A stretch of DNA of 64,000 nt from Escherichia coli (lineage in GTDB: Bacteria > Pseudomonadota > Gammaproteobacteria > Enterobacterales > Enterobacteriaceae): assembly GCF_029227855.1 (NCBI RefSeq), contig NZ_CP074356.1, one strand, 5' to 3'. The translations under genes and the position numbers were made by a program. This document shows, piece by piece, positions 7,036-63,445 of this stretch; position 1 is the stretch's first letter, and the number at the start of each line of letters is the position of its first letter. The notes beneath the pieces were generated by a model. That model had not been told where the DNA came from. It made no database searches and saw only the letters and a program-made list of their open reading frames with translations.

Positions 7036-7125
7036 GGAGAGATGCCGGAGCGGCTGAACGGACCGGTCTCGAAAACCGGAGTAGGGGCAACTCTACCGGG
7101 GGTTCAAATCCCCCTCTCTCCGCCA
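7036..7125 (+). tRNA. serU: tRNA-Ser (anticodon CGA); prophage attachment target
   Basis: GGAGAGATGCCGGAGCGGCTGAACGGACCGGTCTCGAAAACCGG...CCCCCTCTCTCCGCCA, 90 nt with long variable arm; its 3' 62 nt are repeated at 63384..63445. Confidence 0.9.
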
Positions 7126-20692: not shown

Positions 20693-20769
20693 CGGTCCTT
20701 TAGCTCAGTGGTGAGAGCGAGCGACTCATAATCGCCAGGTCGCTGGTTCAAATCCAGCAAGGGCCACCA
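20693..20769 (+). tRNA. Phage-borne tRNA with CAU anticodon (Met or lysidine-Ile2 type)
   Basis: GGTCCTTTAGCTCAGTGGTGAGAGCGAGCGACTCATAATCGCC...GGGCCACCA; cloverleaf folds. Confidence 0.85.
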
Positions 20770-20874
20770 TCACAAACCGCCATTAGCTTATCAGGAAGAG
20801 CAGACGACACGATAACAGGGGTGTTGGTGCGGGGGGGGGGCGGGTCCCCGATGGCGGTCCATTATCGGTATTCA

Positions 20875-20951
20875 GCGTTGTTAGCTCAGCCGGACAGAGC
20901 AATTGCCTTCTAAGCAATCGGTCACTGGTTCGAATCCAGTACAGCGCGCCA
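20875..20951 (+). tRNA. Phage-borne tRNA-Arg (anticodon UCU)
   Basis: GCGTTGTTAGCTCAGCCGGACAGAGCAATTGCCTTCTAAGCAATCGGTCACTGGTTCGAATCCAGTACAGCGCGCCA. Confidence 0.85.
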
Positions 20952-26168: not shown

Positions 26169-26339
26169 GAGGTTGCCCTGTATTCAGTGTCGCTGATTTG
26201 TATTGTCTGAAGTTGTTTTTACGTTAGGTTGATGCAGATCAATTAATACGATACCTGCGTCATAATTGATTATTTGACGTGGTTTGATGGCCTCCACGCA
26301 CGTTGTGATATGTAGATGATAATCATTATCGCTTTACGG

Positions 26340-26540
26340 GTCCTTTCCGGTGATCCGACAGGTTACGGGGCGGCGACCTCGCGGGTTTTCGCTATTTATG
26401 AAAATTTTCTGGGGAAAATCATGTCGGTACTTCTCGAACATAACTATTTGTTTTTTCTAATATCGAATCCGTAAAAGGTCCGACATGAAAACGCCTAAAA
26501 AAGTCATTTTCGGGCACTTTCATGTCGGCCCCTGTATTTA
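26340..26540 (+). other. Prophage cos site: lambda-identical cosN (cohesive end GGGCGGCGACCT at 26369..26380) with a non-lambda cosB (three CATGTCGG-type elements)
   Basis: ACGGGTCCTTTCCGGTGATCCGACAGGTTACG|GGGCGGCGACCT|CGCGGGTTTTCGCTATTTATGAAAATTTTC matches lambda; downstream repeats differ from lambda R sites. Confidence 0.8.
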
Positions 26541-26555
26541 TTGTGAGACTGTTTC

Positions 26556-27075
26556 ATGAAGGTTAATAAAAAGAAACTTGCCGAAATTTTCAACGTGGAT
26601 CCGCGAACGATTGAACGCTGGCAGTCTCAGGGACTCCCTTGCGTCTCCGGAGGTGGTAAGGGCGTTGAATCTGTATTTGATACCGCCATGGCAATTCAGT
26701 GGTATGCGCAGAGGGAAGCTGATATCGAAAATGAAAAACTCCGTAAAGAGGTTGAGGATTACAGGGCTGCCAGTGAGGCAGATCTCCAGCCTGGGACTAT
26801 TGAGTACGAACGCCATCGACTTACGCGTGCGCAGGCCGACGCACAGGAGCTGAAGAATGCCAGAGACTCCGCAGAGGTGGTGGAAACCGCATTCTGTACT
26901 TTCGTGCTGTCACGGATCGCAGGTGAAATTGCCAGTATTCTTGACGGGATCCCTCTCTCGGTACAGCGGCGTTTTCCGGAACTGGAAAACCGACATGTTG
27001 ATTTCCTGAAACGGGATATCATCAAAGCCATGAACAAAGCAGCCGCGCTGGATGAACTGATACCGGGGTTGCTGA

Positions 27076-27101
<26 letters not shown>
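26556..27101 (+). CDS. Nu1: Terminase small subunit
   Basis: 181 aa collinear with lambda Nu1 (C-terminal two-thirds nearly identical; N-terminal DNA-binding region diverged). Confidence 0.9.
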
Positions 27102-32111: not shown

Positions 32112-32444
32112 ATGACGAGCAAAGAAACCTTTACCCATTACCAGCCGCTGGGCAACAGTGACCCGGCTCATACCGCAACCGCGCCAGGCGGATTGAGTGC
32201 GAAAGCGCCTGCAATGACCCCGCTGATGCTGGACACCTCCACCCGTAAGCTGGTTGCGTGGGATGGCACCACCGACGGTGCTGCTGTCGGCATTCTTGCT
32301 GTTGCTGCTGACCAGACCAGCACCACGCTGACGTTCTACAAGTCCGGCACGTTCCGTTATGAGGATGTGCTCTGGCCGGAGGCTGCCAGCGACGAGACGA
32401 AAAAACGGACCGCGTTTGCCGGAACGGCAATCAGCATCGTTTAA
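32112..32444 (+). CDS. D: Head decoration protein D
   Basis: [27 protein letters not shown]...; lambda gpD. Confidence 0.9.
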
Positions 32445-32499: not shown

Positions 32500-32775
32500 A
32501 TGTCGATGTACACAACCGCCCAGCTGCTGGCGGCAAATGAGCAGAAATTTAAGTTTGATCCGCTGTTTCTGCGTCTCTTTTTCCGTGAGAGCTATCCCTT
32601 CACCACGGAGAAAGTCTATCTCTCACAAATTCCGGGGCTGGTAAACATGGCGCTGTACGTTTCGCCGATTGTTTCCGGTGAGGTTATCCGCTCCCGTGGC
32701 GGCTCCACCTCTGAATTTACGCCGGGATATGTCAAGCCGAAGCACTTAGCATGGCTTTCTGAGGCTTTCGTGTAG
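32500..32775 (+). pseudogene. E: Major capsid protein E, 5' fragment (codons 1-82) disrupted by insertion
   Basis: MSMYTTAQLLAANEQKFKFDPLFLRLFFRESYPF...EFTPGYVKPKH matches lambda gpE, then reads into foreign sequence (LAWLSEAFV, stop at 32775). Confidence 0.85.
32735..32744 (+). repeat. Left copy of 10-bp direct repeat AGCCGAAGCA (putative att core of the inserted element)
   Basis: Identical 10-mer at 43864..43873 exactly where E homology resumes. Confidence 0.6.
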
Positions 32776-32907
32776 CTGCTGGTTTTTACACTTAATCTTT
32801 TGATAATAAAGAATAAGTTTATCTGGCGCTTTCACTGAATTTTCCTCGTTATCTGTGTGTTGCAATCATCTCTGTATTGCAGCTTGTATTGCTTTTTGGG
32901 GCTAAAA

Positions 32908-34143
32908 ATGGCTGGCGAGAACAAACTGAGCGACAAAGCGCTTAAAGGATATCTGGGGAAACCCAGAGAAAAGCAGATCACCATTGCTGATGGAAAGGGG
33001 CTTTCTATTCGTGTGAGTACTAAAGGGGCTGTGAGCTTTGTTTTCTTCTACAGGTTAGCAGGTGGCCGGGCTGCTCCGGTCTGGCTAACGTTGGGTAAAT
33101 ATCCTGATATGTCACTCAAACAGGCAAGGGAAAAGCGCGACGAGTGCCGTGGTTGGTTGGCTGACAAACGTGATCCGCGTATCCAGATTAAGATTCAGGC
33201 TGAAGAACGCTTAAAGCCGGTCACAGTGGAGGATGCACTAAATTACTGGTATGAAAATTACTGTAAGGTGCGTCGTAAAACTCATGCTGTAACGCTTGGC
33301 AGATTTCGAAAGCATATCTTTCCCTATATCGGTCATTTGCCCGTAAATGACACTCACCTATATGAATAGCTGGACTGTTTTGACCGAATTAAACGTAATG
33401 CACCAGTTATGGCGGCGTATGTTTTTTCTGACACTAAATTAGCTCTTCGTTTTTGTCGGGTACGCCAGTACGCGACGTGTGATGCTTTAAAGGATTTGCG
33501 CATGAGTGATGTGGGGCAGATTGCAGGTAAGCGGGATCGGGTTCTGGATGAGGTCGAACTCGGCCAGCTCTGGAAGGCAATTTTTGTCGAGCCTGATTTA
33601 AAACTAATGTCTGAATACACGCGAAAAATGTTTGTGCTTTGTACAGTATTTGGATGTCGAATGAGTGAAGCCCGATTATCAGAATGGAGCGAATGGGATC
33701 TCGAAAGTTGGGTTTGGACTGTGCCAAAAGATCACTCAAAAACTGGTGTTGAAATCGTCAGACCAGTACCTGAAATTCTACGACAGTGGGTAACGGATGT
33801 TCACGAAGAGACAAAACATACTGGTTATGTGCTGGGAAGTCTGCGAATTAGAGAAAGCGTAAGCAAGATTGGGGGGAAAATCGGTAAACGTTTGGGCCAT
33901 GAAAAACAATGGTCACTACACGACCTTAGAAGAACGCTATCTACTCATCTAAGTGATCTCGGTGTTGAATTTTATGTAGTAGAACAACTGTTAGGCCATG
34001 CGCTACCTGGCGTGGCAGGTGTTTACAACCGGAGTAAGTTTATGGCTAAAAAACTGGATGCTCTGGAACTCTGGACTACATATCTCAATAGCATCGCAGC
34101 TGCTGATTCAAAAGTGACAATCCTCAAACAAAAGGCTGGTTAG
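32908..34143 (+). pseudogene. int: P4-type tyrosine integrase interrupted by an in-frame amber codon (TAG at 33367..33369)
   Basis: Track ORFs 32857..33369 and 33409..34143 are in the same frame; P4-int-like N-terminus (..KGLSIRVSTKGAVSFVFFYR..GKYPDMSLKQAREKRDE..); TAG sits where homologues have Trp. Confidence 0.8.
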
Positions 34144-34144
34144 C

Positions 34145-34375
34145 ATGAAAAAAATGGCAATTGTTGATAAAAAGGGTCTGGAGTACATTCCTAACATTGA
34201 CCGAATGATCCGTGAGAAAGAATGTCGGGAGCTAACTACTCTTGCGAACAGCACACGCTGGAAGCTGGAGAAGGAAGGAAAATTTCCTAAGCGGATCAAG
34301 ATTGGTTCCACTGCTGTTGCATATCGTCTTTCAGAAGTGCAGGCATGGATTCGAGGTGAGTGGGAAACAACTTAA
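34145..34375 (+). CDS. alpA: AlpA-family transcriptional regulator / excisionase-like protein
   Basis: 76 aa, HTH (..CRELTTLANSTRWKLEKEGKFPKRIKIGSTAVAYRLSEVQAWI..) directly after int. Confidence 0.75.
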   Translation: MKKMAIVDKKGLEYIPNIDRMIREKECRELTTLANSTRWKLEKEGKFPKRIKIGSTAVAYRLSEVQAWIRGEWETT

Positions 34376-34382
34376 CTATTAG

Positions 34383-35213
34383 GTGGGCATTGTGGCTATA
34401 TTTCATTATACAGATCTTTTTGGTTTGAAAGGTATATTAGACTCTAATTCTTTATGGGCTACAAACATATATTTCTTAAATGATAAAGAGGAGTCTAACC
34501 ATGGATGTGAATGCTTTCGAAATACAATTAAAATAGTTGATGACAATATCATTCCAAAAGATAAGAAAACTATTTTGCTCAAGTCTCTTGACATGTATGA
34601 GAAAGGGAGGTTACAAAAAGAAAAAGGGATTGATAAACATGTTTATAGCATCTCTTTTTGTAAGGAAAACGATAAGTTAAGTCAGTGGAGAGGTTACGGA
34701 AATAAACAGGGTGTTTGCATTGAGTTTGATGCGGATGAACTTGTGAGCTTTTCTCAAAATATTTATTTAAATTGTGTTGCACATGATGTTATATATTCAA
34801 ATAATAACGATATTACTAAGATGAGTAAGGAGTTGGGAGAGTTTTTTTCTTGTAATGGTATTAATATTAAAGAAATGAATGATCATTTTGTAACAATGGT
34901 CTCTACGTATCAATTTATATCTAAATACATCCCATTTTTTAAACATCCTAGTTTTATCGAAGAGAATGAATTTAGATTGGTATTTACTCCGTGGATGCAA
35001 ATGCCAGATGTGCACTTCAGAATAAATAATAATGGGATCATCCCTTATATCATCATTGATAATAAAGATAATAGAAAGTTACCAATTAAAAGCATTACAA
35101 TTGGCCCGACAAACGATTATGATTTCATTGAGGCTGGTATAAAAATGTTCTTGGATTCAAGAGGATTTAGTTCTGTGGAAATTAAATCCTCATCAATTCC
35201 ATTCAGGGGGTAA
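34383..35213 (+). CDS. DUF2971-like protein (276 aa), AT-rich cargo gene
   Basis: N-terminal IFHYTDLFGLKGILDSNSLWATNIYFLNDKEE resembles the DUF2971 signature; very low GC; start could be GTG 34383 or GTG 34391. Confidence 0.6.
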   Translation: MGIVAIFHYTDLFGLKGILDSNSLWATNIYFLNDKEESNHGCECFRNTIKIVDDNIIPKDKKTILLKSLDMYEKGRLQKEKGIDKHVYSISFCKENDKLSQWRGYGNKQGVCIEFDADELVSFSQNIYLNCVAHDVIYSNNNDITKMSKELGEFFSCNGINIKEMNDHFVTMVSTYQFISKYIPFFKHPSFIEENEFRLVFTPWMQMPDVHFRINNNGIIPYIIIDNKDNRKLPIKSITIGPTNDYDFIEAGIKMFLDSRGFSSVEIKSSSIPFRG

Positions 35214-35344: not shown

Positions 35345-35701
35345 TCAATATTTAGGTGGTTCAACAAGAGCGTTTATCATTGCTCTCAAATTATCGCGAA
35401 CACTTATCCAAGTCTGTTCTGCTCGTTCTAACTCATCAGTGTACAACTTTAATGTTTTATCTATGCCATATGTGGCTATTAAATTTATAGCTTCTTGTAA
35501 TTTTTCAGGATTATTCCTTCTTGGGGGAGTGAATATACCACGGATTTTTCCGGTAATTAAAGCTTTACGGTGTCTACATAGAATACCTTTACTTCCTGCT
35601 GGACAATTACAAGTCATGATTAGCGAGCCAGAATCGTTTGATACAGTGACTATGTATACATCCAAACTACTGCTACTTGTTGCGAAGAATTCGTATTTCA
35701 T
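35345..35701 (-). CDS. Small SWIM-type zinc-finger protein (118 aa)
   Basis: CNCPAGSKGILCRH (CxC..CxH) motif; AT-rich. Confidence 0.55.
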   Translation of the reverse strand: MKYEFFATSSSSLDVYIVTVSNDSGSLIMTCNCPAGSKGILCRHRKALITGKIRGIFTPPRRNNPEKLQEAINLIATYGIDKTLKLYTDELERAEQTWISVRDNLRAMINALVEPPKY

Positions 35702-35860: not shown

Positions 35861-36059
35861 TCTGAATTGTGGAGATTGCCCATCACCCTTAGGACTTTTA
35901 TCGCGTTTGATCGTTGACAAGTGACCACCTATTGAATTAGCCTTTTCATTGTTAGGTGACCACCTTAACACGGGGGCACTTAAAAAAGCAAAGCCCGAAG
36001 GTGCTGGGAACACCAACGGGCTTCTAACCACCAACGATAGCAACAGTATCGAGGTAGCT

Positions 36060-36263
36060 ATGAGAAATCATACCACACACCCGCAAGGGCGGGACCCGCA
36101 CAACCTGAATAAATACATCTGGCGTTTTATCGCCTTGAGTACGGCACAACCGCGCATGATTACCATCGAGGCCATCAGCGAACAGGAAGCCCGCCAGCAA
36201 TCCCCAACTGGCTGCGTGATGGTATTCGCCGCCCGTATTCGTCAGGAGGTGTGCCGTGCTTAA
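36060..36263 (+). CDS. Small hypothetical satellite protein (67 aa)
   Basis: ATG with GAGG RBS; first of five tightly coupled small genes preceding the primase. Confidence 0.4.
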   Translation: MRNHTTHPQGRDPHNLNKYIWRFIALSTAQPRMITIEAISEQEARQQSPTGCVMVFAARIRQEVCRA

Positions 36264-36441
36264 AACCTTCCGTGTATTTGCCCGAGCTGTTAACCCACTG
36301 GGCCACACAATTGGTATCACTCAGAACGTGAAGGCTGTTAATGTTCAGACGGCTATTGCTGCGGTGAGAAGCGAATCATCAGAATATGGCTTATCACAAG
36401 TCATTATTTCAGCAGTGTATGAATTAAAAGAGGTGCATTAA
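36256..36441 (+). CDS. Small hypothetical satellite protein (61 aa)
   Basis: Track ORF, overlaps neighbours by a few nt. Confidence 0.4.
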   Translation: MLKTFRVFARAVNPLGHTIGITQNVKAVNVQTAIAAVRSESSEYGLSQVIISAVYELKEVH

Positions 36442-36632
36442 TGCAGGAAATCACATTACACGAAGCCGCTGAACGTGCGCACCAGACAGAAATTATTTGC
36501 CGCCTTCTTGAGGTATACCCGAACAAAATTACAGATGCTGATATATCCGCGCTGGCGAGCCTACTGGCGCGCCTTTCGGGAAGTGTCGCTAGTTTCCTGA
36601 TTGAGGAAGAAAGTAAGCTGGTGGGGGATTAA
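36441..36632 (+). CDS. Small hypothetical satellite protein (63 aa)
   Basis: Track ORF, start overlaps upstream stop. Confidence 0.4.
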   Translation: MQEITLHEAAERAHQTEIICRLLEVYPNKITDADISALASLLARLSGSVASFLIEEESKLVGD

Positions 36633-36854
36633 ATGAATACAGAACGGGAAGTCTTTTTTAAATTGTTAGCATGTGCAGAAAGTTCATTAACTTTAAATAA
36701 TTCAGCAAAAGCAATATTAAATATGTGGCTTGATTGCATAAATGACAATGAAGATGCAAATATTGCTTATGGCCTGTTGTCACTTATTGATGAATCAGCA
36801 GAAAAACTCAATGACGCAATAAATAGTGCCCTGCTATCAAATAAGTCGAGTTAA
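36633..36854 (+). CDS. Small hypothetical satellite protein (73 aa)
   Basis: Track ORF. Confidence 0.4.
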   Translation: MNTEREVFFKLLACAESSLTLNNSAKAILNMWLDCINDNEDANIAYGLLSLIDESAEKLNDAINSALLSNKSS

Positions 36855-36871
36855 GTCGAGGAATAAATAAT

Positions 36872-37171
36872 ATGGAAATGAAAAATTCTGGCTTTATTGC
36901 CAGCGGCCCCGCTCGGCCTGAATTTATGAACGGCGATATTTACCGCGATAAATACGGCGGCACGGTAACGATTAAAGGCGTGGCAGAACGGCGCATCACT
37001 TACCGCCGTGAGGGGTATAGCTATGACTGCGTGATGCCTGTTTATCAGTTCCGGCGTGATTTTTCCCTGGTATATGCCGCACCCCGCAGTAAGCCCATCA
37101 GCAGGGAAAAAGCGCGGGGAAACATCCAGAAAATGAAAAGCATGATTAACGCATTCAGGGGCAAAAAATGA
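36872..37171 (+). CDS. Small hypothetical satellite protein (99 aa)
   Basis: Track ORF, stop overlaps primase start. Confidence 0.45.
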   Translation: MEMKNSGFIASGPARPEFMNGDIYRDKYGGTVTIKGVAERRITYRREGYSYDCVMPVYQFRRDFSLVYAAPRSKPISREKARGNIQKMKSMINAFRGKK

Positions 37172-38919
37172 AACTGGCACCGAACTTAAAAAAACAGCCA
37201 CGCGACAGACTGACAGAGGTAATCATCTTTGCAGGTAGTGATGCGTGGAGCCATGCGAAAGAGTGGCGGGAATGGGCGGGTAAACATATTGCCGCCGACG
37301 ATGTGCCGCCTGTCGTGCTGGCTGATGAGCAACTGAAAAATATCACCGATTACCGGATCATTGATGAAGATCGTCAGTGTGTGCGTGTTTACCGCGCAGG
37401 ACATATCACAGAGCACAGCATGACGCAGATTGTTACGTTACTGGCTGTGGCTGGAGTGAAGACCGTACACGAATACGCGGGGATTACTGACACCAGCCCA
37501 GTGGATTTATCCGAGCAGTTGCCGCGACTCAAAGAGGAATGCGAGCGTGGGGAAAGTCTGGTGCTTAATCTTCCGACGAAGCAAAAGGCGCAACTTTCAC
37601 AGATGGCAGACAGTGAACGTGCACAACTACTTGCCGATCGCTTTGATGGTGTGTGTGTTCATGCAGAAAGTGAAATCGTCCACGTATGGCGCGGCGGGGT
37701 ATGGTGTCCGGTCAGCACAATGGAGCTGAGCCGCGAAATGGTGGCGATCTATTCAGAGCACAGGGCCACGTTCAGCAAACGTGTAATCAATAACGCCGTG
37801 GAAGCGTTAAAAGTTATTGCCGACCCCATGGGGGAGCCGTCCGGTGATTTGCTACCGTTCACTAATGGTGTGCTTAACCTGAAAACGGGGGAATTTTCTC
37901 CGCACTCGCCGGAGCACTGGAGCACCACGCACAATGGCATTGAGTACACGCCACCAGTAGCAGGGGAAAACATCCGCGATAATGCGCCAAATTTCCATAA
38001 ATGGCTTGAACATGCTGCAAGAAAAGACCCGCGCAAGATGATGCGTATATGTGCCGCGTTATACATGATTATGGCGAACCGCTACGACTGGCAGATGTTC
38101 ATTGAGGCCACCGGAGACGGGGGAAGCGGTAAGAGTACATTTACCCATATTGCCACCCTGCTTGCTGGCAAACAGAACACCGTAAGCGCGGAGATGACAT
38201 CACTCGATGATGCAGGAGGGCGCGCGCAGGTTGTCGGGAGTCGTCTTATCGTCCTTGCCGATCAGCCGAAATATACGGGGGAAGGCACGGGCATCAAGAA
38301 AATCACGGGAGGCGATCCCGTTGAAATTAACCCGAAATATGAGAAGCGATTCACGACGATAATAAGGGCGGTGGTACTGGCAACCAATAACGACCCGATG
38401 ATCTTTACCGAACGGGCCGGAGGTGTGTCACGCCGTCGGGTGATTTTCCGGTTCGACAACATTGTAAGGGAGGACGAAAAAGACAAGGAATTACCGGAAA
38501 AGATAGCGGCAGAAATCCCCGTAATTATCCGCCGCTTGCTGGCTAATTTTGCTGACCCTGAAAAGGCACGGGCTTTATTACTGGAACAGCGTGACGGTGA
38601 TGAAGCTCTGGCAATAAAGCAGCAAACGGATCCGGTTGTTGAGCTTTGCGCGGCGCTGGAGTTTCTGGAGGAAGCTCGTGGGCTAATGATGGGCGGTGGT
38701 GGTGACACCGTGAAGTACACGACCAGAAACAGCCTTTACCGTGTCTATATGGCCTTCATGGCATACACAGGAAAGGGGAAATGTTTGAGCGTGAATGAGT
38801 TCGGAAAGGCTATGAGGTCAGCGGCGAAAGTTTACGGATATGAATATATTACGCGAAAAGTTAAGGGAGTCACGCAGACCAACGCAACGACTACTGATGA
38901 TTGCGATGCGTTTTTATAA
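37168..38919 (+). CDS. Primase/replicase (P4 alpha / D5-type), 583 aa
   Basis: Walker A GDGGSGKST in the C-terminal half; large N-terminal domain; followed by iterons. Confidence 0.8.
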   Translation: MKLAPNLKKQPRDRLTEVIIFAGSDAWSHAKEWREWAGKHIAADDVPPVVLADEQLKNITDYRIIDEDRQCVRVYRAGHITEHSMTQIVTLLAVAGVKTVHEYAGITDTSPVDLSEQLPRLKEECERGESLVLNLPTKQKAQLSQMADSERAQLLADRFDGVCVHAESEIVHVWRGGVWCPVSTMELSREMVAIYSEHRATFSKRVINNAVEALKVIADPMGEPSGDLLPFTNGVLNLKTGEFSPHSPEHWSTTHNGIEYTPPVAGENIRDNAPNFHKWLEHAARKDPRKMMRICAALYMIMANRYDWQMFIEATGDGGSGKSTFTHIATLLAGKQNTVSAEMTSLDDAGGRAQVVGSRLIVLADQPKYTGEGTGIKKITGGDPVEINPKYEKRFTTIIRAVVLATNNDPMIFTERAGGVSRRRVIFRFDNIVREDEKDKELPEKIAAEIPVIIRRLLANFADPEKARALLLEQRDGDEALAIKQQTDPVVELCAALEFLEEARGLMMGGGGDTVKYTTRNSLYRVYMAFMAYTGKGKCLSVNEFGKAMRSAAKVYGYEYITRKVKGVTQTNATTTDDCDAFL

Positions 38920-38935
38920 AAAATGGCAATGGTTA

Positions 38936-39170
38936 TCTACCTTGTCTACCTGACTGAAAGAAAATACTTTTATTTCAATGTATTAATGCAGGTAGATAAC
39001 TATTTTTCACTGTCTACCTGTTATCTACCTTATCTACCCATTTTTGTAGACAGGTAAGGAGACGGGTAGAGATGAGGTAGACAGCTATTTGGGGCTGTCT
39101 ACCTCCCTGAAACCCGCGCCATTACTGGCCTGATAACTAATCAGGTAGACAAGGTAGACAAGGTGGTGGT
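38936..39170. repeat. Iteron array (putative satellite replication origin)
   Basis: About 12 copies of (A/G)TCTACC / GGTAGA(C/T) in both orientations within ~235 bp. Confidence 0.7.
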
Positions 39171-39208: not shown

Positions 39209-39466
39209 ATGCACACTTCAGGAAAACTGAACAAACATATAAAGCCACATTACCGCGCCCTTGATATGGCTGAACACTGGCTAAGGGTGGCGATTAAGGC
39301 AATAGACCGCAACGCCGGGGAAGGATACGCGAAAGCACATCCCGAACTGATAAGCGCATTCATGACAACGGCGGCTGCAAACTTTGCCACGCTGACCGAA
39401 CGGGAGATTGCTGAAGCGGAGGAAGTGACAACAATCAATATTAAGTCCGGAGAGCAGGCAGCATGA
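39209..39466 (+). CDS. Hypothetical satellite protein (85 aa)
   Basis: Track ORF, translationally coupled to the SSB gene. Confidence 0.45.
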   Translation: MHTSGKLNKHIKPHYRALDMAEHWLRVAIKAIDRNAGEGYAKAHPELISAFMTTAAANFATLTEREIAEAEEVTTINIKSGEQAA

Positions 39467-39912
39467 CGGCGCAAATATCAGTTTACGGGCGGTTGGTGGA
39501 CGACCCGCAGACAAAACAGACCAGCAAGGGCACCCCCATGACGCTGGCGCGTATGGCGGTATCACTGCCCTGCAGTCAGTCGGATGACGGTCTGGCGACG
39601 TTGTGGTTATCTGTCCTGGCGTTTGGCAGACAAGCCGACGCGCTGGCAAAGCATCACAAAGGCGAACTCCTGAGCGTGGCGGGTAACATGCAGATGAGCC
39701 AGTGGACTGGACAGAACGGCGAAACGCGGCAGGGCTGGCAGGTTATCGCAGACAGCGTAATCAGTGCGCGATCGGTGCGACCGGGCGGCAAAAAAGGCCA
39801 ACAGGGGCAGGCTACTGACGCACTGAACAGAGCAAAACAACAGGCAGATCAGCAAGGAAGCCAGCCACCAGAGGGAGATAATGAGCAATGGGGAGATGAT
39901 ATCCCGTTTTAA
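39463..39912 (+). CDS. ssb: Single-stranded DNA-binding protein
   Basis: OB-fold-like N-terminus, Gly/Gln-rich linker and acidic C-terminal tail ending DDIPF. Confidence 0.8.
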   Translation: MTAQISVYGRLVDDPQTKQTSKGTPMTLARMAVSLPCSQSDDGLATLWLSVLAFGRQADALAKHHKGELLSVAGNMQMSQWTGQNGETRQGWQVIADSVISARSVRPGGKKGQQGQATDALNRAKQQADQQGSQPPEGDNEQWGDDIPF

Positions 39913-40128
39913 ATATTGCCAATAAAAAAAGCCGGAAAAAATAAATTTTCCGGCATGCTACATAAATCCCGACCAAAGGGAGTGAAGATATTAACACTAA
40001 TTGTCCGCACTGAAGTTGTCACACCAAAACTTTATACAACATTGCACTCGGTTGCATGTGTTCGCATGACAAATATCGGTGATAGCATATATCCACAATT
40101 ATTTTTAATGAATGCAAAGAGGATGCGT

Positions 40129-41169
40129 ATGGTTGATTTATATTCGCCTACTCAGCTTGTACAGGTAGTTAATGCTGTAGATGTACAAAAACAACTAAAT
40201 GCGTTGTTTACCAGTTTGTTTTTTACTCGCTCGGTAATGTTTGAATCGCGCGATATTATTCTTGATACAATCGACGATCCAAATATCCCAATTGCAGCGT
40301 TTTGTTCTCCTATGGTGGGTAGTAAAGTTTCACGTGACGAAGGGTACGAATCAAAAACAATTCGTCCAGGCTATATGAAGCCGAAAAGCAGCATTGATCC
40401 AAATAAGTTAGCTGTGCGCCCTGCTGGTGTGTCACCTGAGCAATACAATGCTTTTGGGGCGCGTAATATTAAAGTTAAACAGGCGATTGTAAATCAGGCT
40501 AAAGCTATTCGTGCACGTATTGAATGGCTTGCTGTTCAGGCAATCACAACGGGGAAAAATATCATTGAGGGCGATGGTATTGAACGTTATGAGCTGGACT
40601 GGAATATAAAACCACAAAATATCATCACTCAGTCTGGCGGTACTGAGTGGTCAGGTAAGGATAAAGAAACTTTTGATCCAAATGATGATATTGAGAGCTA
40701 CGCAGAATTTAGTGAGGGCGTCACTAATATCATCATTATGGGTGGTAATGTATGGAAGAAATACCGTTCATTCAGAGCGATAAAAGAGGCTTTGGATACC
40801 CGTCGTGGTTCTAATTCCGAACTGGAAACGGCCCTTAAAGACCTTGGTGATTCGGTGAGTTTTAAAGGGTATATGGGCGATGTTGCGATTGTTGTTTACA
40901 GCGGGCGTTATACCGACGAGGACGGAACAGAAAAACATTTCCTTGATCCTGATTTGATGGTGCTTGGCAATACGGCTCTTCAGGGGATTGTCGCCTATGG
41001 CGGTATTCAGGATCCGGAGCTAATCCGAATGGGGCTGACTAAAGCCGAACTTGCACCGAAAAACTATATTGTGCCTGGTGATCCGGCTATTGAATATGTG
41101 CAGACACATTCAGCACCACAGCCAATACCGGCCCGCATCAATCGTTTTGTTACCGTTCGCATTGGCTAA
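40129..41169 (+). CDS. Satellite-encoded major capsid protein, lambda gpE family (346 aa)
   Basis: Collinear similarity to gpE (ITQSGGTEWSGKDKETFDPNDDIESYA..., ..LDTRRGSNSELETALKDLG..GDVAIVVYSGRY..MVLGNT..); start set at MVDLYSPTQ with AGGA RBS. Confidence 0.8.
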   Translation: MVDLYSPTQLVQVVNAVDVQKQLNALFTSLFFTRSVMFESRDIILDTIDDPNIPIAAFCSPMVGSKVSRDEGYESKTIRPGYMKPKSSIDPNKLAVRPAGVSPEQYNAFGARNIKVKQAIVNQAKAIRARIEWLAVQAITTGKNIIEGDGIERYELDWNIKPQNIITQSGGTEWSGKDKETFDPNDDIESYAEFSEGVTNIIIMGGNVWKKYRSFRAIKEALDTRRGSNSELETALKDLGDSVSFKGYMGDVAIVVYSGRYTDEDGTEKHFLDPDLMVLGNTALQGIVAYGGIQDPELIRMGLTKAELAPKNYIVPGDPAIEYVQTHSAPQPIPARINRFVTVRIG

Positions 41170-41178
41170 GGGGGAGCA

Positions 41179-41520
41179 ATGGCTACTCATTACACTGAAC
41201 TCATGGCTGGCACTGAAGCACTGGTGACTACGCTGGGGATATTTTCAGCTAATAAAGGGGTAATTCCTGCATTTACGCCACTGATGCAGGAAGATGCAAC
41301 AGGTGCACTGGTGGTATGGGATGGTTCGAGCGTAGGTAAAGCGGTTTATGTTTCCGCTGTACAAATCGACACCGCGAAAAAAACACAGGCTCAGGTCTAT
41401 AAGACAGGTGTCTTAAATGTTGATGCTCTGAACTGGCCTGAGTCTGTTAAAGAACTGTCAGTAAAGGTTGCAGCGTTTGTTGGCTCAGGTATTTCTGTTC
41501 AGCCGCTGGCTCGTGTGTAA
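41179..41520 (+). CDS. Satellite-encoded head decoration protein, lambda gpD-like (113 aa)
   Basis: Shares THY, TPLM, LVVWDG, YKTG, WPE, AF.G..IS motifs with gpD at matching positions. Confidence 0.7.
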   Translation: MATHYTELMAGTEALVTTLGIFSANKGVIPAFTPLMQEDATGALVVWDGSSVGKAVYVSAVQIDTAKKTQAQVYKTGVLNVDALNWPESVKELSVKVAAFVGSGISVQPLARV

Positions 41521-41531
41521 AGGGGGATACA

Positions 41532-41915
41532 ATGCAGAATGATTACAATGACCTTAAGCCAATTGCCGAAATGATGTACCCGAATCAAGCTGTAGAGGAA
41601 TTAAAAGCTATCGCTGACAAAATGTGTTTAAGCGAGCGCCTTGTTGATATGAATCAGGTGATGGAAATTACAACCCTGAGTCGTCGTACACTGCTAAACC
41701 TTGAGGCTAGTGGAGAGTTCCCGGAGCGTGTGCAGGTTACGGAAGGGCGTAAGGCCTGGTATTTAAGTGAAGTGATCGACTGGATAAATAATATTCCTCG
41801 CGCTTCTGAATATTGCCGCGTACCTGTCCCAAAAAAGCCAGATGCGGCGCTATGCCTCAAGATTGAGCGTGTACGCCGCAATGCACGGGATGGTCGCTAT
41901 AAGCTGATTGGTTGA
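41532..41915 (+). CDS. AlpA/MerR-like winged-HTH protein immediately upstream of the satellite cos
   Basis: 127 aa with HTH (..MNQVMEITTLSRRTLLNLEASGEFPERVQVTEGRKAWYLSEVIDWINN..). Confidence 0.6.
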   Translation: MQNDYNDLKPIAEMMYPNQAVEELKAIADKMCLSERLVDMNQVMEITTLSRRTLLNLEASGEFPERVQVTEGRKAWYLSEVIDWINNIPRASEYCRVPVPKKPDAALCLKIERVRRNARDGRYKLIG

Positions 41916-41939: not shown

Positions 41940-42145
41940 GCGGGTCCTTTCCGGCGATCCAGAACGTTACGGGGCGTCAGGCGCGCAGTTTTTCGCTATT
42001 TGTGAAAATTTTCCTGTTTAAGGCGTTTCCGTTCTTCTTCGCCGTAACTTAATGTTTTTATTAAAAACACCCCCTAAAAAGAAAGGAAACGACAGGTGCT
42101 AAAAACAGGCTTTTTGGCCTCTGTCGTTTCCTTTCTCTGGTTTTG
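41940..42145 (+). other. Second cos site, belonging to the satellite: altered cohesive-end sequence (GGGCGTCAGGCG at 41972..41983) with lambda-type cosB elements
   Basis: GGGTCCTTTCCGGCGATCC..GTTACG|GGGCGTCAGGCG|CGCAGTTTTTCGCTATTTGTGAAAATTTTCCTGTTTAAGGCGTTTCCGTTCTTCTTCG..GAAAGGAAACGACAGGTG..TCTGTCGTTTCCTTTCTC tracks lambda cos closely. Confidence 0.75.
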
Positions 42146-42481
42146 TTGCCATCCGTCGCGGTCTATCACCAGAAAAAATCTTATCCCTGAGTTGAATCAG
42201 GCCCTATTCAGAAGCGGCCAATAACGCGCCGCTAGCTTCACTTCATAGTTATGGCCTACTTCTGCGCCATTGCAATTGCTTTATGCGCCTTGATGGTGGA
42301 ATATAGAGCAAGCAGTTTGCGAATAACAAAGTTTCATATGTTTTTTGCTGTGTGGCTAGACAACTTTACAGCAGAGTTTTGTGTCAGTTCTTTATGTGTG
42401 CAAGCAAGCTTGAGGGGGAATTACTTCTGGCTGTATCTTTGCTTAAGAACAGCAATAATTTAATCATAAGGAAATGTATAT

Positions 42482-42504
42482 AAGCCTGATTAAATTTCAG
42501 GCTT
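42482..42504 (-). terminator. Hairpin terminator after the TIR gene
   Basis: AAGCCTGA-TTAAATT-TCAGGCTT just 3' of the stop. Confidence 0.4.
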
Positions 42505-42513
42505 ATTGAAATG

Positions 42514-43656
42514 TTAACTCCTTATTAGAGAGTAAATTCCATCCTCTTTAAGGAAGTCTATTACTTCAAAGAATGAGATAAAGAATTCCCAAGAACCAAA
42601 AGCATATGCATGAATTTCGTAAGGTGCAAAATGGAATCTAAATCCATCACTATTTATTGTGAACGAGTCTAAGTTACTATCCATGATACCCGTTGCAAAC
42701 GTACTAATGTCGTCCTCACTTGGTTTTTCACCAGTTTTCTCCCAAAATTCACGAGCTGATTCAGAGATTATTTTTTGTTTTATCTTATTAATCGCTTCTT
42801 GCTCTTTCCCTTCGGTAAATACATCCCATAAACTAAATTTGTATGCGTAGTCATCCTTGGTTATTACGAAATTACTAGTTTCAAAATGACTGTTAGGGTG
42901 TGCTGCTCCCGCACCATACCAATGTACGGAATGAAGGATGCTCATGACATTTTCGTTACAGTATGAGATGTTATAACTTTCATTATAGGAACTAGTGTAA
43001 GTGTGTTTATATTCTTCATCCCAATATGGTGTTCCTGGCCATAGTGATGTGCGTTCAGAAAAAATATGTAAAGCCGCTTTTCCTGAAAAGTAATCACTAA
43101 TGAGTTTTGCTGATTTCGGTAATGTATGGCTTTCAATTCTTGGATATGCTATTTCAATTTCATGCCCTGGGATCTTGTTATATTCTTCCTTGAAAACCTC
43201 GCTGCTAAAGTTAAATGGCCCATAAGTGATACCTTGAGATATTTCAAGTTTTTGTTGCGATGCTGCTAATCTTAAAGATCTAGATAAAATGTCCCAACCA
43301 TCATTTCTCTTAAAATCAATGAATTGGAGCTTGCTTGATATGTAGGCGGGTACTTCGCAATCATCAATAAGTAATGGTATCACGAACACATCATCTGGTT
43401 TGTAATACTTTAGTTTATCAATGGCGTCATTTATTTCGCGGCGAATATAACCATTTTTCTGAGTGCTCACTTTGCTAAGGATAAGGATTATCAAGTTTGA
43501 ATTAGCGAAGTTTTTTTGGATTTCATAATCCCAGTTTACGCCAGCGGGTATATCTTTTACATCCATCCAAGGGGAATATCCTCCACTTTTTAGCCTTTCA
43601 TAGATTTCTTCAGTTATCGTTTCATCTTCTTTTGCATGAGCAAGAAAAATTTTCAT
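42514..43656 (-). CDS. TIR-domain protein with ~250-aa C-terminal domain of unknown function (380 aa); candidate anti-phage defence gene
   Basis: N-terminus MKIFLAHAKEDE...SNLIILILSKVS..YIRREINDAIDK..VIPLLIDD fits the bacterial TIR pattern; AAGGA RBS; AT-rich; between satellite cos and right att repeat. Confidence 0.75.
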   Translation of the reverse strand: MKIFLAHAKEDETITEEIYERLKSGGYSPWMDVKDIPAGVNWDYEIQKNFANSNLIILILSKVSTQKNGYIRREINDAIDKLKYYKPDDVFVIPLLIDDCEVPAYISSKLQFIDFKRNDGWDILSRSLRLAASQQKLEISQGITYGPFNFSSEVFKEEYNKIPGHEIEIAYPRIESHTLPKSAKLISDYFSGKAALHIFSERTSLWPGTPYWDEEYKHTYTSSYNESYNISYCNENVMSILHSVHWYGAGAAHPNSHFETSNFVITKDDYAYKFSLWDVFTEGKEQEAINKIKQKIISESAREFWEKTGEKPSEDDISTFATGIMDSNLDSFTINSDGFRFHFAPYEIHAYAFGSWEFFISFFEVIDFLKEDGIYSLIRS

Positions 43657-43863
43657 TGAATATTCCTTTATAATTTAACTAATTAAGTGAAGGAGGCTTT
43701 ACTTGGCTGTGTTAGAAAAAATTCGGTTTGTTTTTTGTACGATGCCAAGAAGGCTTTTCCCTAACCATGTATTGCAGCATGTATTGCTACGTAATTCTGC
43801 ACCCTCTCATTTATAAAATAAATCTCTGTTAAATCAAGTATCTTTTTTCTATTTGACTCATGT

Positions 43864-43873
43864 AGCCGAAGCA
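43864..43873 (+). repeat. Right copy of 10-bp direct repeat AGCCGAAGCA
   Basis: Identical to 32735..32744; E reading frame resumes immediately after. Confidence 0.6.
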
Positions 43874-44699
43874 TGAGGTGAATCCGCAGATGACCCTGCG
43901 TCGCCTGCCGGATGAAGATCCGCAGAATCTGGCGGACCCGGCTTACCGCCGCCGTCGCATCATTATGCAGAACATGCGTGACGAAGAGCTGGCCATTGCC
44001 CAGGTCGAAGAGATGCAGGCAGTTTCTGCCGTGCTTAAGGGCAAATACACCATGACCGGTGAAGCCTTCGATCCGGTTGAGGTGGATATGGGCCGCAGTG
44101 AGGCGAATAACATCACGCAGTCCGGCGGCACGGAGTGGAGCAAGCGTGACAAGTCCACGTATGACCCGACCGACGATATCGAAGCCTACGCGCTGAACGC
44201 CAGCGGAGTGGTGAATATCATCGTGTTTGATCCGAAAGGCTGGGCGCTGTTCCGTTCCTTCAAAGCCGTCAAGGAGAAGCTGGATACTCGTCGCGGCTCT
44301 CATTCCGAGCTGGAGACAGCGGTGAAAGACCTGGGCAAAGCGGTGTCCTACAAGGGGATGTATGGCGATGTGGCCATCGTCGTGTATTCCGGACAGTACG
44401 TGGAAAACGGCGTCAAAAAGAACTTCCTGCCGGACAACACGATGGTGCTGGGGAACACTCAGGCACGCGGTCTGCGCACCTATGGCTGCATTCAGGATGC
44501 GGACGCACAGCGCGAAGGCATTAACTCCTCTGCCCGTTACCCGAAAAACTGGGTGACCACCGGCGATCCGGCGCGTGAGTTCACCATGATTCAGTCAGCA
44601 CCGCTGATGCTGCTGGCTGACCCTGATGAGTTCGTGTCCGTACAACTGGCGCAATCGTGGCCCTTCGGGGCCATTTTCTCTCTGTGGAGGAGTCCATGA
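43866..44699 (+). pseudogene. E: Major capsid protein E, 3' fragment (codons ~80-341) plus 15-codon readthrough extension
   Basis: PKHEVNPQMTLRRLPDEDPQNLADPAYRRRRIIMQN... matches lambda gpE to ..DEFVSVQLA; the lambda stop position reads CAA here, so the frame runs to TGA at 44697..44699. Confidence 0.85.
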
Positions 44700-63383: not shown

Positions 63384-63445
63384 CGGTCTCGAAAACCGGA
63401 GTAGGGGCAACTCTACCGGGGGTTCAAATCCCCCTCTCTCCGCCA
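63384..63445 (+). repeat. Prophage right attachment site: 62-bp copy of the serU 3' end
   Basis: CGGTCTCGAAAACCGGAGTAGGGGCAACTCTACCGGGGGTTCAAATCCCCCTCTCTCCGCCA identical to 7064..7125. Confidence 0.85.

Follow-up and report, generated by a model that had tools for sequence, protein, structure and literature searches.

The window (the whole stretch of Escherichia coli DNA that was analysed, 64,000 nucleotides) holds a lambda-like prophage in a tRNA-Ser gene adjoining mtfA, and the gene E of this prophage is interrupted by a satellite of 11,129 bp. The satellite is co-oriented with E, which it splits after codon 82, and it is bounded by a 10-bp direct repeat, AGCCGAAGCA (32735-32744 and 43864-43873); both E fragments and nearly all satellite genes lie on the + strand. 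The prophage, referred to here as the helper, has its cos at 26338-26560 and carries intact-length Nu1, A, W, B, C, D, FI, FII, Z, U, V, G, T, H, M, L, K, I, and J genes. Satellite genes are arranged in four zones, for integration (int and alpA), accessory functions, replication (primase, repeats, and SSB) and late functions, an order that is the same in annotated relatives. At the left end, int and alpA point inward; at the right end, SSB is followed by the E-like gene, the D-like gene, a second alpA, cos, and then the cargo gene. The features, including helper gene D for comparison, are as follows:

32112-32444, + strand: helper gene D
32500-32744, + strand: 5' fragment of helper gene E (codons 1-82), ending in the attL core; its translation matches lambda-type E up to ...GYVKPKH
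32735-32744, no strand: attL core AGCCGAAGCA, a 10-bp identity block of the same length as that of 11capE (PMC10111431)
32873-32893, + strand: doubled TGTATTGC-N4-TGTATTGC motif, ~133 bp from the core centre
32908-34143, + strand: satellite tyrosine integrase with an amber codon at 33367-33369 (W154*); both halves match PHROG integrases
34145-34375, + strand: AlpA-family excisionase/regulator (PHROG 2790; Pfam Phage_AlpA in relatives)
34383-35213, + strand: DUF2971 protein, accessory (annotation of relatives; PHROG 1762)
35345-35701, - strand: SWIM zinc-finger protein (PHROG screen; annotation of relatives)
35949-37171, + strand: Icd-like protein, three small ORFs and a DUF4222 protein (NCBIfam phage_ICD_like; PHROGs; annotation of relatives)
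37168-38919, + strand: primase/replication protein of the D5_N/DUF5906 type (PHROG 864 DNA primase, E = 2.9e-161; Pfam in relatives)
38932-39104, no strand: iterated repeats 3' of pri, a likely ori judging from the repeat families and from the position at which GN-PICI origins were mapped
39209-39912, + strand: 85-aa protein (PHROG 1231) and SSB (PHROG 44)
40129-41169, + strand: satellite E-like major capsid protein, 346 aa (PHROG, PDB sequence matches, AlphaFold model)
41179-41520, + strand: satellite D-like head decoration protein, 113 aa (PHROG, PDB sequence matches)
41532-41915, + strand: second AlpA-family protein, 127 aa (PHROG 2790, E = 3e-49; PDB 8c3t, AlpA family)
41942-42150, + strand: cos-like site with a cosQ-like box, the cohesive-end equivalent GGGCGTCAGGCG at 41972-41983 and cosB (alignment to the helper cos and to EcCICFT073 cos sites)
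42514-43656, - strand: TIR-domain cargo gene, lying in the variable stretch that separates cos from attR (PADLOC and NCBIfam TIR matches)
43768-43788, + strand: second copy of the doubled TGTATTGC motif, ~81 bp from the core centre
43864-43873, no strand: attR core AGCCGAAGCA, 10-bp repeat
43874-44699, + strand: 3' fragment of helper gene E, in which the stop position 44653-44655 reads CAA and the frame runs on

In relatives, the place of the TIR gene is taken by terS, Abi_C, DUF2971, or some other gene.

By criteria that Fillol-Salom et al. reportedly set out in 2018, the satellite qualifies as a Gram-negative PICI: its 11,129 bp fall within the range of 10-20 kb, it has int, alpA, pri-rep, and cos, and it possesses neither lysis genes nor a full structural set. 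Its ends are more specific. In helper-embedded PICIs (HE-PICIs), the attP has a doubled TGTATTGC motif on each side of its centre, the upstream one at 81 ± 2 bp and the downstream one at 132 ± 2 bp (PMC10111431), a geometry that the window distances fit. Since its core repeat, these motifs, and its gene order match the published description, the satellite is shown to be an HE-PICI of the site group E:Phage_cap_E_80, whose prototype is 11capE. At the DNA level, its int shares 98-99% identity with that of other E-site elements. This is no new kind of element, because the arrangement was published in 2023 with 201 instances (Tommasini et al., 2023; PMC10111431). Like the window satellite, 11capE of E. 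coli NRG857c is an 11-kb element co-oriented inside a lambda-type capsid gene E, with a 10-bp block, doubled motifs at equal distances, and int-alpA, pri, SSB, its own capsid gene, and cos, in the absence of terS. The two differ in that the helper of Eco567.11capE resides in icd; in that the cargo of the window satellite is a TIR gene; and in that 11capE and its helper 50icd have cos regions matching at 90% over 258 bp, whereas those of the window satellite and its helper match less closely. After induction, 11capE has been shown by qPCR and sequencing to excise precisely and to restore E, although the attempt of the authors to recover its virions failed (PMC10111431).

Two lesions further distinguish the window copy from 11capE. 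Codon 154 of int is TAG in the window only and TGG in 13 relatives, so that excision of this copy is probably blocked. In addition, loss of the helper E stop extends the frame by 15 codons. Taken together, the amber codon and the lost stop make it likely that the composite of helper and satellite (~56.3 kb) in this window is immobile. As a separate observation, helper E in this window cannot be restored intact.

The protein encoded at 40129-41169 is preceded by the ribosome-binding site AAGAGG, 6 nt 5' of its start. It matches the PHROG "major head protein" (E = 2e-89) and shares 42% identity with helper E once the latter is rejoined (E = 6e-86). Its PDB sequence matches include 3bqw (2.7e-121) and lambda gpE, 7vi9 (4.7e-77); its AlphaFold model (pLDDT 78) superposes on the same two structures with TM of 0.85 and 0.82, respectively, and PF03864 is recorded for a cluster 99% identical to it. 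By these sequence and model comparisons, the protein is assigned to the lambda gpE family of HK97-fold capsid proteins (PF03864). Compared with gpE, neither the alignment nor the model reveals an insertion or an additional domain. Clade-specific residues at 12 positions set the satellite clade apart from phage E; W308, which does not vary among phage E proteins, is changed in half of the members and is Y in the window protein, and PDB entry 7sj5 carries a W308A mutation. The neighboring 113-aa protein matches PHROG 49 "head decoration" (E = 1.3e-25) and is 38% identical to helper D (E = 1e-17). Its PDB sequence matches are the head-decoration structures 1td0/1td3 (which we take to be the SHP of phage 21), 1c5e, and 7vii, lambda gpD being among them, and relatives have PF02924 recorded on their D-like genes (identity of 95% in loci L009-L011 and of 50-58% in L003-L008); the sequence thus places it in the gpD/SHP head decoration family (PF02924). 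The original prediction is borne out in these respects: both genes have the identity, length, and position that it gave, they are homologous to helper E and D and yet diverged from them, the capsid fold is upheld by alignment and structure prediction against gpE, and the satellite does sit within helper E.

No match to terminase, portal, protease, or tail families was obtained among the 18 satellite ORFs screened, as had also been anticipated, and for these functions the satellite must rely on the helper. Close relatives do have a Nu1-type small terminase directly after the cos-like site, and in a single, more distant relative there is an S49 protease. The presence of an RppA/B/C homologue adjoining the cos of a PICI is reportedly (in work of Fillol-Salom et al. 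from 2019) a mark of Rpp-type packaging redirection. The 127-aa protein adjoining cos in the window is an AlpA-family protein and not an Rpp homologue; none was found by a PDB sequence search of this protein or by tblastn of CFT073 RppA against the window (best E = 1.9). The satellite cohesive end GGGCGTCAGGCG differs from that of the helper, GGGCGGCGACCT, at 6 of 12 positions. Its cosB is not of the helper's type, being presumably lambda-type, and the DNA-binding half of helper Nu1 differs from the type that this cosB represents. Because of both discrepancies, efficient cutting by the terminase of this helper is not assured. A search for a phage with the altered cohesive end, as the true helper, returned none: all 23 exact IMG/VR matches lie within this satellite family. 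Four satellite copies, at 10,785-11,129 bp each, would make 43.1-44.5 kb, which falls within the packaging range of lambda (roughly 78-105% of 48.5 kb).

The origin of the pair is older than its present location. Among 50,697 phage records, no homologue of the E-like protein exceeds 42.3% identity, and its homologues in protein databases are split into a clade at 50-99% (44 clusters) and a phage clade at 38-43%. Every sampled context of the former is a PICI with the order E-then-D, the opposite of that of phages. In three independent cases, satellite and own helper share only 43.5-45.6% identity in E and 37.5-40.4% in D. Recent capture of the pair from the present helper was considered and is ruled out by the 43-46% identity of E in these three cases and the reversed gene order. 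The values of dN/dS are 0.09 for E (dS 1.06) and 0.095 for D, and the intact full-length pair extends across Escherichia, Salmonella, Serratia, Edwardsiella, Cedecea, and Lelliottia; within E. coli, the module is present in 394 of 5,426 complete genomes (~7%). The same pair, in the same order, is also found in PICIs that do not interrupt helper E (integrated at roxA/phoQ, at fis, or within the gene for a portal protein), and is therefore not tied to the interruption of E. All identified helpers, from three lineages, have E/D-type heads. The pair is thereby shown to be an old satellite-only lineage, always E-then-D and under strong purifying selection. What the present analysis adds to the published arrangement is this satellite-only lineage, its reversed order, the dN/dS of ~0.09, and the occurrence in PICIs not interrupting E.

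Several known systems bear on the role of such a pair. The closest is EcCICFT073, which has the same E-then-D genes between SSB and cos, with c1499 and c1500 being 55 and 54% identical to the window E-like and D-like proteins, and a helper with a lambda-type head; c1499 is the protein of crystal structure 3BQW. Unlike the window satellite, EcCICFT073 is chromosomal (roxA/phoQ site) and has the canonical cohesive end and the packaging redirector RppA. In this element, the loss of c1499 or c1500 by deletion left both transfer and interference unchanged, and the DNA packaged was all of phage size (PMC6092414). Another example is Ccm of SaPIbov5, also a homologue of the helper major capsid protein in the satellite of a cos-type helper, which fills pentamers and turns the prolate helper head into a small isometric one (Hawkins et al., 2021; PMC8569155). 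No decoration partner accompanies Ccm, which belongs to an unrelated sequence lineage, and no such size shift has been seen for the E. coli relative. The cf-PICIs of the EcCIEDL933 type share the int, alpA, and pri backbone and a capsid gene of their own lineage, apart from phage homologues, but their capsid is HK97-type whereas that of the window is lambda-E-type; they steal only tails, encoding portal, protease, head-tail adaptor, connector, HNH, terS, and terL, none of which is in the window satellite (Alqurainy et al., 2023). Finally, P4 likewise has its own capsid-associated proteins, Sid and Psu, the latter a decoration protein. However, it carries no capsid-protein homologue and uses only the major capsid protein of its helper P2, with Sid as an external scaffold that sets the small size.

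The original prediction went further and proposed capsid-protein replacement, that is, a shell of satellite E and D built on helper portal, scaffold, and terminase and setting a smaller capsid for one 11-kb genome, in a minimal variant of capsid-forming satellites. The last part fails, since cf-PICIs are set apart from PICIs by their own portal, maturation protease, head-tail adaptor, connector, and terL/terS (PMC10085698); these were looked for and are absent, and the possession of a major capsid protein does not suffice for membership. The remainder is very improbable. It has in its favor that satellite E and D are intact and under purifying selection while helper E is split (and, in this window, beyond intact restoration), that Ccm redirects size in SaPIbov5 (PMC8569155), and that small heads are made by PmCI172, another element with a capsid homologue. 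Nevertheless, only phage-sized DNA was packaged with EcCICFT073, and its transfer and interference were unaffected by deletion of c1499 or c1500 (PMC6092414), the pair is equally present where E is uninterrupted, precise excision of 11capE restores E, the E-like protein has gained nothing over gpE in the way of an insertion or domain, and satellite lengths suit four copies per normal head. A broader version, in which satellite E and D are a real shell source or an obligatory co-subunit of the satellite particles of E-site HE-PICIs, is improbable too. If it were true, these heads and, through the private cohesive end GGGCGTCAGGCG as opposed to GGGCGGCGACCT, their DNA ends would be distinct from those of the helper, and the elements would represent a partial capsid take-over, intermediate between classical and capsid-forming PICIs. 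The reading that we place ahead, in which we have about as much belief as doubt, is that of the late module of a known E-site HE-PICI, likely immobile in this copy, whose pair provides an auxiliary shell subunit and its matching cement protein for helper heads of normal size. The pair would be made late, by read-through from the helper late operon and/or under AlpA-type control by the satellite, and would enter the lambda-type head pathway of the helper at T=7 size, being dispensable for transfer in laboratory conditions and without redirecting capsid size. Helper terminase would cut satellite DNA at the satellite's own cos-like site, about four copies would fill a head (4 x 11.13 = 44.5 kb), and helper E would normally be restored through precise excision. 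This auxiliary-shell role is consistent with the E/D-type heads of all identified helpers, with four copies fitting the packaging range of lambda, and with EcCICFT073, where both deletion mutants are transferred normally and keep their interference, and DNA of phage size is packaged (PMC6092414). It is weakened by the cohesive end differing at half of its positions and the mismatched Nu1 half, by the change of W308 to Y, and by the failure to recover virions of a helper-embedded satellite; the knock-outs without phenotype would equally fit a role unrelated to transfer.

Proteins of the gpD/SHP type bind only expanded shells, a property that agrees with a cement function and makes a matching decoration protein hard to explain in a pure assembly poison. 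The latter is the core of an alternative in which E and D act in interference or defence, as a poison or decoy subunit that would disturb the heads of the helper or of rival lambda-type phages as they assemble, or by masking capsid sensing. Dispensable for transfer and yet strongly conserved, with 12 clade-specific positions and W308 changed in half of the clade, the genes could behave in this way, and anti-phage functions are common in satellites, a TIR cargo gene being nearby. However, interference with lambda was not lifted by the loss of c1499 or c1500 (though Rpp may mask such an effect), and we regard this alternative as unlikely while taking it seriously. Somewhat unlikelier still is that the pair is only a back-up copy, supplying capsid protein to the composite before satellite excision, an idea suggested in the Discussion of Tommasini et al. 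(PMC10111431). Helper E is indeed unusable until excision, the satellite is co-oriented with the late operon, and the composite of ~56.3 kb exceeds the capacity of a lambda head, so that timing would matter. Against this, the pair is older than the E insertion and independent of it; chromosomal PICIs carry it as well, a portal-inserted satellite has E and D but no portal copy, and satellite E is far from the E of its own helper in all three cases. That the pair is a decaying remnant of captured late genes, now without function, is hardly credible: the absence of phenotype in EcCICFT073 and the description of the PICI late zone as dynamic, with captured late genes, would allow it, but dN/dS is ~0.09 at dS of ~1, gene order is fixed, and the genes are intact at full length in six enterobacterial genera and in the 394 E. 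coli genomes.

Most enterobacterial PICIs have retained a pair of capsid and decoration genes for which no phenotype has been seen. A satellite-only lineage, reversed order, strong constraint, a prevalence of ~7% in complete E. coli genomes, and independence of the integration site argue that the pair has a function under selection to which transfer assays in the laboratory have been blind, and E-site HE-PICIs, in which helper E is off until excision, are a natural place to seek it.

As for the element as a whole, no known RNA families (P4-type CI/seqA, C4, isrK) were found in the satellite at gathering thresholds, and a promoter and terminator scan, which gave sites no commoner than in shuffled sequence, was uninformative on the expression of the pair. 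Contigs of ~11 kb in IMG/VR were considered as excised or packaged satellite genomes; this was ruled out, as they are integrated copies with helper flanks. At least 25 complete E. coli genomes have the whole element within a gene for a major capsid protein. The exact mosaic of the window was found in none of the complete E. coli genomes searched: the best matches cover 86% at 99.4% identity, and the left and right parts match different variants.

A lambda-like prophage (the helper) lies in the window, integrated at a tRNA-Ser (cga) gene (7036-7125) beside mtfA, with the 3' part of the tRNA repeated at 63384-63445 (~63.4 kb). The helper gene E is in two pieces, codons 1-82 ending at 32744 and the remainder starting at 43874, and between them is an 11,129-bp satellite bordered by the 10-bp direct repeat AGCCGAAGCA. 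The satellite genes are nearly all co-oriented with the helper late operon.

Order of features in the helper late operon and the satellite
Up to ~32.4 kb, plus strand: left part of the helper late operon (Nu1, A, W, B, C, D)
Satellite, first genes: integrase, AlpA, DUF2971 protein, SWIM protein (minus strand), Icd-like protein and small ORFs, DUF4222 protein
Satellite, next: primase, iterated repeats, 85-aa protein, SSB
Satellite, then: 40129-41169, 346-aa capsid-like protein (E-like); 41179-41520, 113-aa decoration-like protein (D-like)
Satellite, last: second AlpA-family protein, cos-like site, TIR-domain gene (minus strand)
From ~44.7 kb: right part of the helper late operon (FI, FII, Z, U, V, G, T, H, M, L, K, I, J)

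The 216-bp gap between the SSB and capsid-like genes contains a perfect hairpin with a 9-bp stem (39931-39954, GCCGGAAAA...TTTTCCGGC), with a T-run on the minus strand.

The arrangement of helper and satellite is already known and is not a new finding. Tommasini, Mageeney and Williams (2023; PMC10111431) described 'Eco567.11capE' (11capE), an 11-kb island that interrupts a prophage's lambda-type capsid gene, runs in the same direction as that gene, itself carries a capsid gene of this family and has an attL/attR identity block of 10 bp. The class was named helper-embedded PICIs (HE-PICIs), with 201 instances at the E site (PMC10111431). Diagnostic for the attP of HE-PICIs is a doubled TGTATTGC motif that occurs twice, once 81 ± 2 bp upstream of the crossover centre and once 132 ± 2 bp downstream of it (PMC10111431), and the window shows both copies exactly so (43768-43788 and 32873-32893). 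The four-zone gene order also agrees with the published one. The published helper sits in icd, a different site from that of the helper described here. Complete E. coli genomes contain further copies of the whole element, and the match always covers 'major capsid protein (x3)', that is, the two helper E fragments and the satellite's own gene. Of 29 reference Gram-negative PICIs, 21 have a capsid gene (PMC10111431). The gene pair has been published too: in the chromosomal island EcCICFT073, retrieved from the CFT073 genome, a pair (c1499/c1500) has the same place and order as that of the window and is 55% (E-like) and 54% (D-like) identical to it.

The original prediction described the E-like protein as a lambda-E-family capsid protein diverged from the helper E, and this has been borne out. 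Over its whole length it shares 42% identity with the rejoined helper E (E = 6e-86); it matches PHROG major-head families and lambda gpE structures (4.7e-77), and its AlphaFold model (pLDDT 78) superposes on gpE with a TM of 0.82, with no extra domain and no large indel. Its top match in both structure and sequence is 3BQW, the 'putative capsid protein of prophage (E. coli CFT073)'. Similarly, the D-like protein is a diverged gpD-like decoration protein, 38% identical to the helper D, that matches the lambda gpD structure and, in a PDB sequence search, the head-decoration-protein structures 1td0/1td3, which we take to be phage 21 SHP. Terminase, portal, protease and tail genes had been predicted to be missing, and none of these families was matched by any of the satellite ORFs screened. 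It was correct to call the element a satellite that has E/D genes of its own but lacks any other morphogenetic gene.

The composite of helper and satellite measures ~56.3 kb from tRNA-Ser to the repeated tRNA end, which exceeds the capacity of a lambda head. Codon 154 of the satellite integrase is an amber TAG (33367-33369) where TGG is found elsewhere (13 of 13 related copies examined); the change is a nonsense mutation private to this copy, which would block excision, or else a sequencing error. The helper E stop codon (44653-44655) is changed from TAA, as in two relatives, to CAA, and the frame extends 15 codons into the start of FI, so a rejoined E would still bear 15 extra residues. Unless these changes are sequencing errors, the composite is probably immobile. 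Barring such errors, no lambda-type capsid gene of the composite is intact except the E-like gene, which is more a sign of decay than an argument for replacement. Genes for tRNA-Met and tRNA-Arg (tct) are also found within the helper (20694-20951).

The proposal that the satellite protein replaces the helper shell, possibly setting a smaller capsid, finds no support in the nearest experiments or in the distribution of the pair. In EcCICFT073, lambda plaque formation was not regained when c1499 or c1500 was deleted, and island transfer stayed unchanged (Table 1 in PMC6092414). The DNA extracted from particles was all phage-sized, 'ruling out' size redirection, and packaging of the island is stated to occur in full-size heads (PMC6092414). 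After induction of 11capE, the composite excised precisely and then replicated; at 2 h the satellite had itself been excised (42-98%), restoring E. No particles were recoverable (PMC10111431). These results, which come from particles of the chromosomal island EcCICFT073 and from the excision of 11capE, argue against small heads and against a capsid replacement that would be obligatory. The element does not belong to the capsid-forming PICIs, and the suggestion of a capsid-forming satellite is rejected. What remains of interest is the strongly conserved, satellite-specific capsid/decoration pair, along with an odd cohesive-end sequence.

Among 50,697 phage records, the best match of the E-like protein is lambda E itself (42.3% identical). 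A large protein collection contains a continuum of 346-352-aa E-like relatives at 50-99% identity (44 clusters) and a separate phage-type clade at 38-43%. All sampled members of the former lie in PICIs, with SSB or primase on one side and a cos, terS or cargo region on the other. In the E-like protein, residue Y307 (41047-41049) is equivalent to lambda gpE W308, mutated in PDB 7sj5 (W308A); this position is W in 61/61 phage-clade clusters and Y in 21/44 satellite-clade clusters, the window's included. PICIs with the pair occupy roxA/phoQ, fis (Serratia, Lelliottia), another chromosomal site, the inside of a portal gene (Edwardsiella) and the inside of E. The order is capsid then decoration in every PICI examined (window 40129-41520 and relatives' loci L003-L011 and L015), and D then E in lambda-type phages. 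Purifying selection is strong on both genes (dN/dS 0.095 for D, and 0.09 for E, where dS is 1.06). Across three satellite-helper pairs that are independent of each other, all with helpers having E/D-type heads, the satellite proteins are 43.5-45.6% (E) and 37.5-40.4% (D) identical to those of their own helper. The E/D module, counted as present at a coverage of at least 80%, is found in 394 of 5,426 complete E. coli genomes. Taken together, the satellite-only lineage, context, order, selection, helper distance and frequency rule out both a recent capture and a relic. An S49 (gpC-like) protease gene comes after the E-then-D pair in a Lelliottia fis-site PICI (L008:10409-11752), so some relatives carry more of the head module. 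A 4.4-kb metagenome scaffold has a chimeric capsid gene (L013:2801-3829) followed by the satellite D-like gene; its protein, P0043, is helper/lambda-type E from residue 1 to ~225 and identical to the satellite E-like protein thereafter, and is either a true recombinant at a conserved LDTRRGSNSELETA segment or an assembly chimera.

Proteins of the gpD type bind the expanded shell only. Since a matched decoration protein has been kept, the E-like protein is best explained as a true lambda-type shell subunit and not a mere poison; this also counts against the main rival, in which the pair would act in interference or as a decoy, as an assembly poison would fit the decoration protein less well. 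Satellites at the E site are 10.8-11.1 kb long, and four copies (43-44.5 kb) fall in the lambda packaging range. This four-copy fit resembles the concatemer packaging reported for EcCICFT073 (PMC6092414). Together with the lack of an extra domain in the E-like protein, these arguments favor, with moderate confidence at best, a model in which the pair would provide an auxiliary shell subunit and a cement protein at normal head size. Read-through from the late operon of the helper would bring about its late expression, and the pair would be dispensable in laboratory conditions. A back-up copy of the interrupted gene is less likely, because the portal-splitting satellite carries E/D but no portal, and the pair is thus not tied to E interruption. 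The small capsid originally proposed is also less likely, given the phage-sized DNA of EcCICFT073 particles, the unchanged transfer after deletion of c1499 or c1500, and an E-like protein with no additional domain.

The cos-like site of the satellite (41942-42150) is at the position of the EcCICFT073 cos sites, with a conserved cosQ-like box and conserved bases flanking the nick sites. Its 12-nt cohesive-end equivalent (41972-41983) is GGGCGTCAGGCG, whereas the helper, lambda and EcCICFT073-type islands have GGGCGGCGACCT and the relative L010 has GGGCGGAAGGCG. The 23 exact matches of GGGCGTCAGGCG in IMG/VR all belong to this satellite family, and not one of them is the cos of a phage itself. 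The satellite cosB presumably resembles that of lambda; the helper cosB and the DNA-binding half of the helper Nu1 are of another type. In the helper Nu1 (26556-27101) the N-terminal, DNA-binding half is non-lambda and the C-terminal half lambda-like. Close relatives of the satellite (e.g., L001:15562-16113) have a small terminase gene directly after cos with the opposite halves, the C-terminal one being diverged and the N-terminal one, we assume, identical to lambda Nu1. In the window this gene is replaced by TIR cargo. No Rpp homologue was found in the satellite by a PDB sequence search with its 127-aa protein or by tblastn of CFT073 RppA against the window. The variable cargo region from cos to attR (42147-43860) encodes here a 380-aa TIR-domain protein (42514-43656, minus strand), whose place is taken in relatives by terS with DUF2971, by Abi_C, by DUF262 or by another gene; the region has the look of a hotspot for defence genes.
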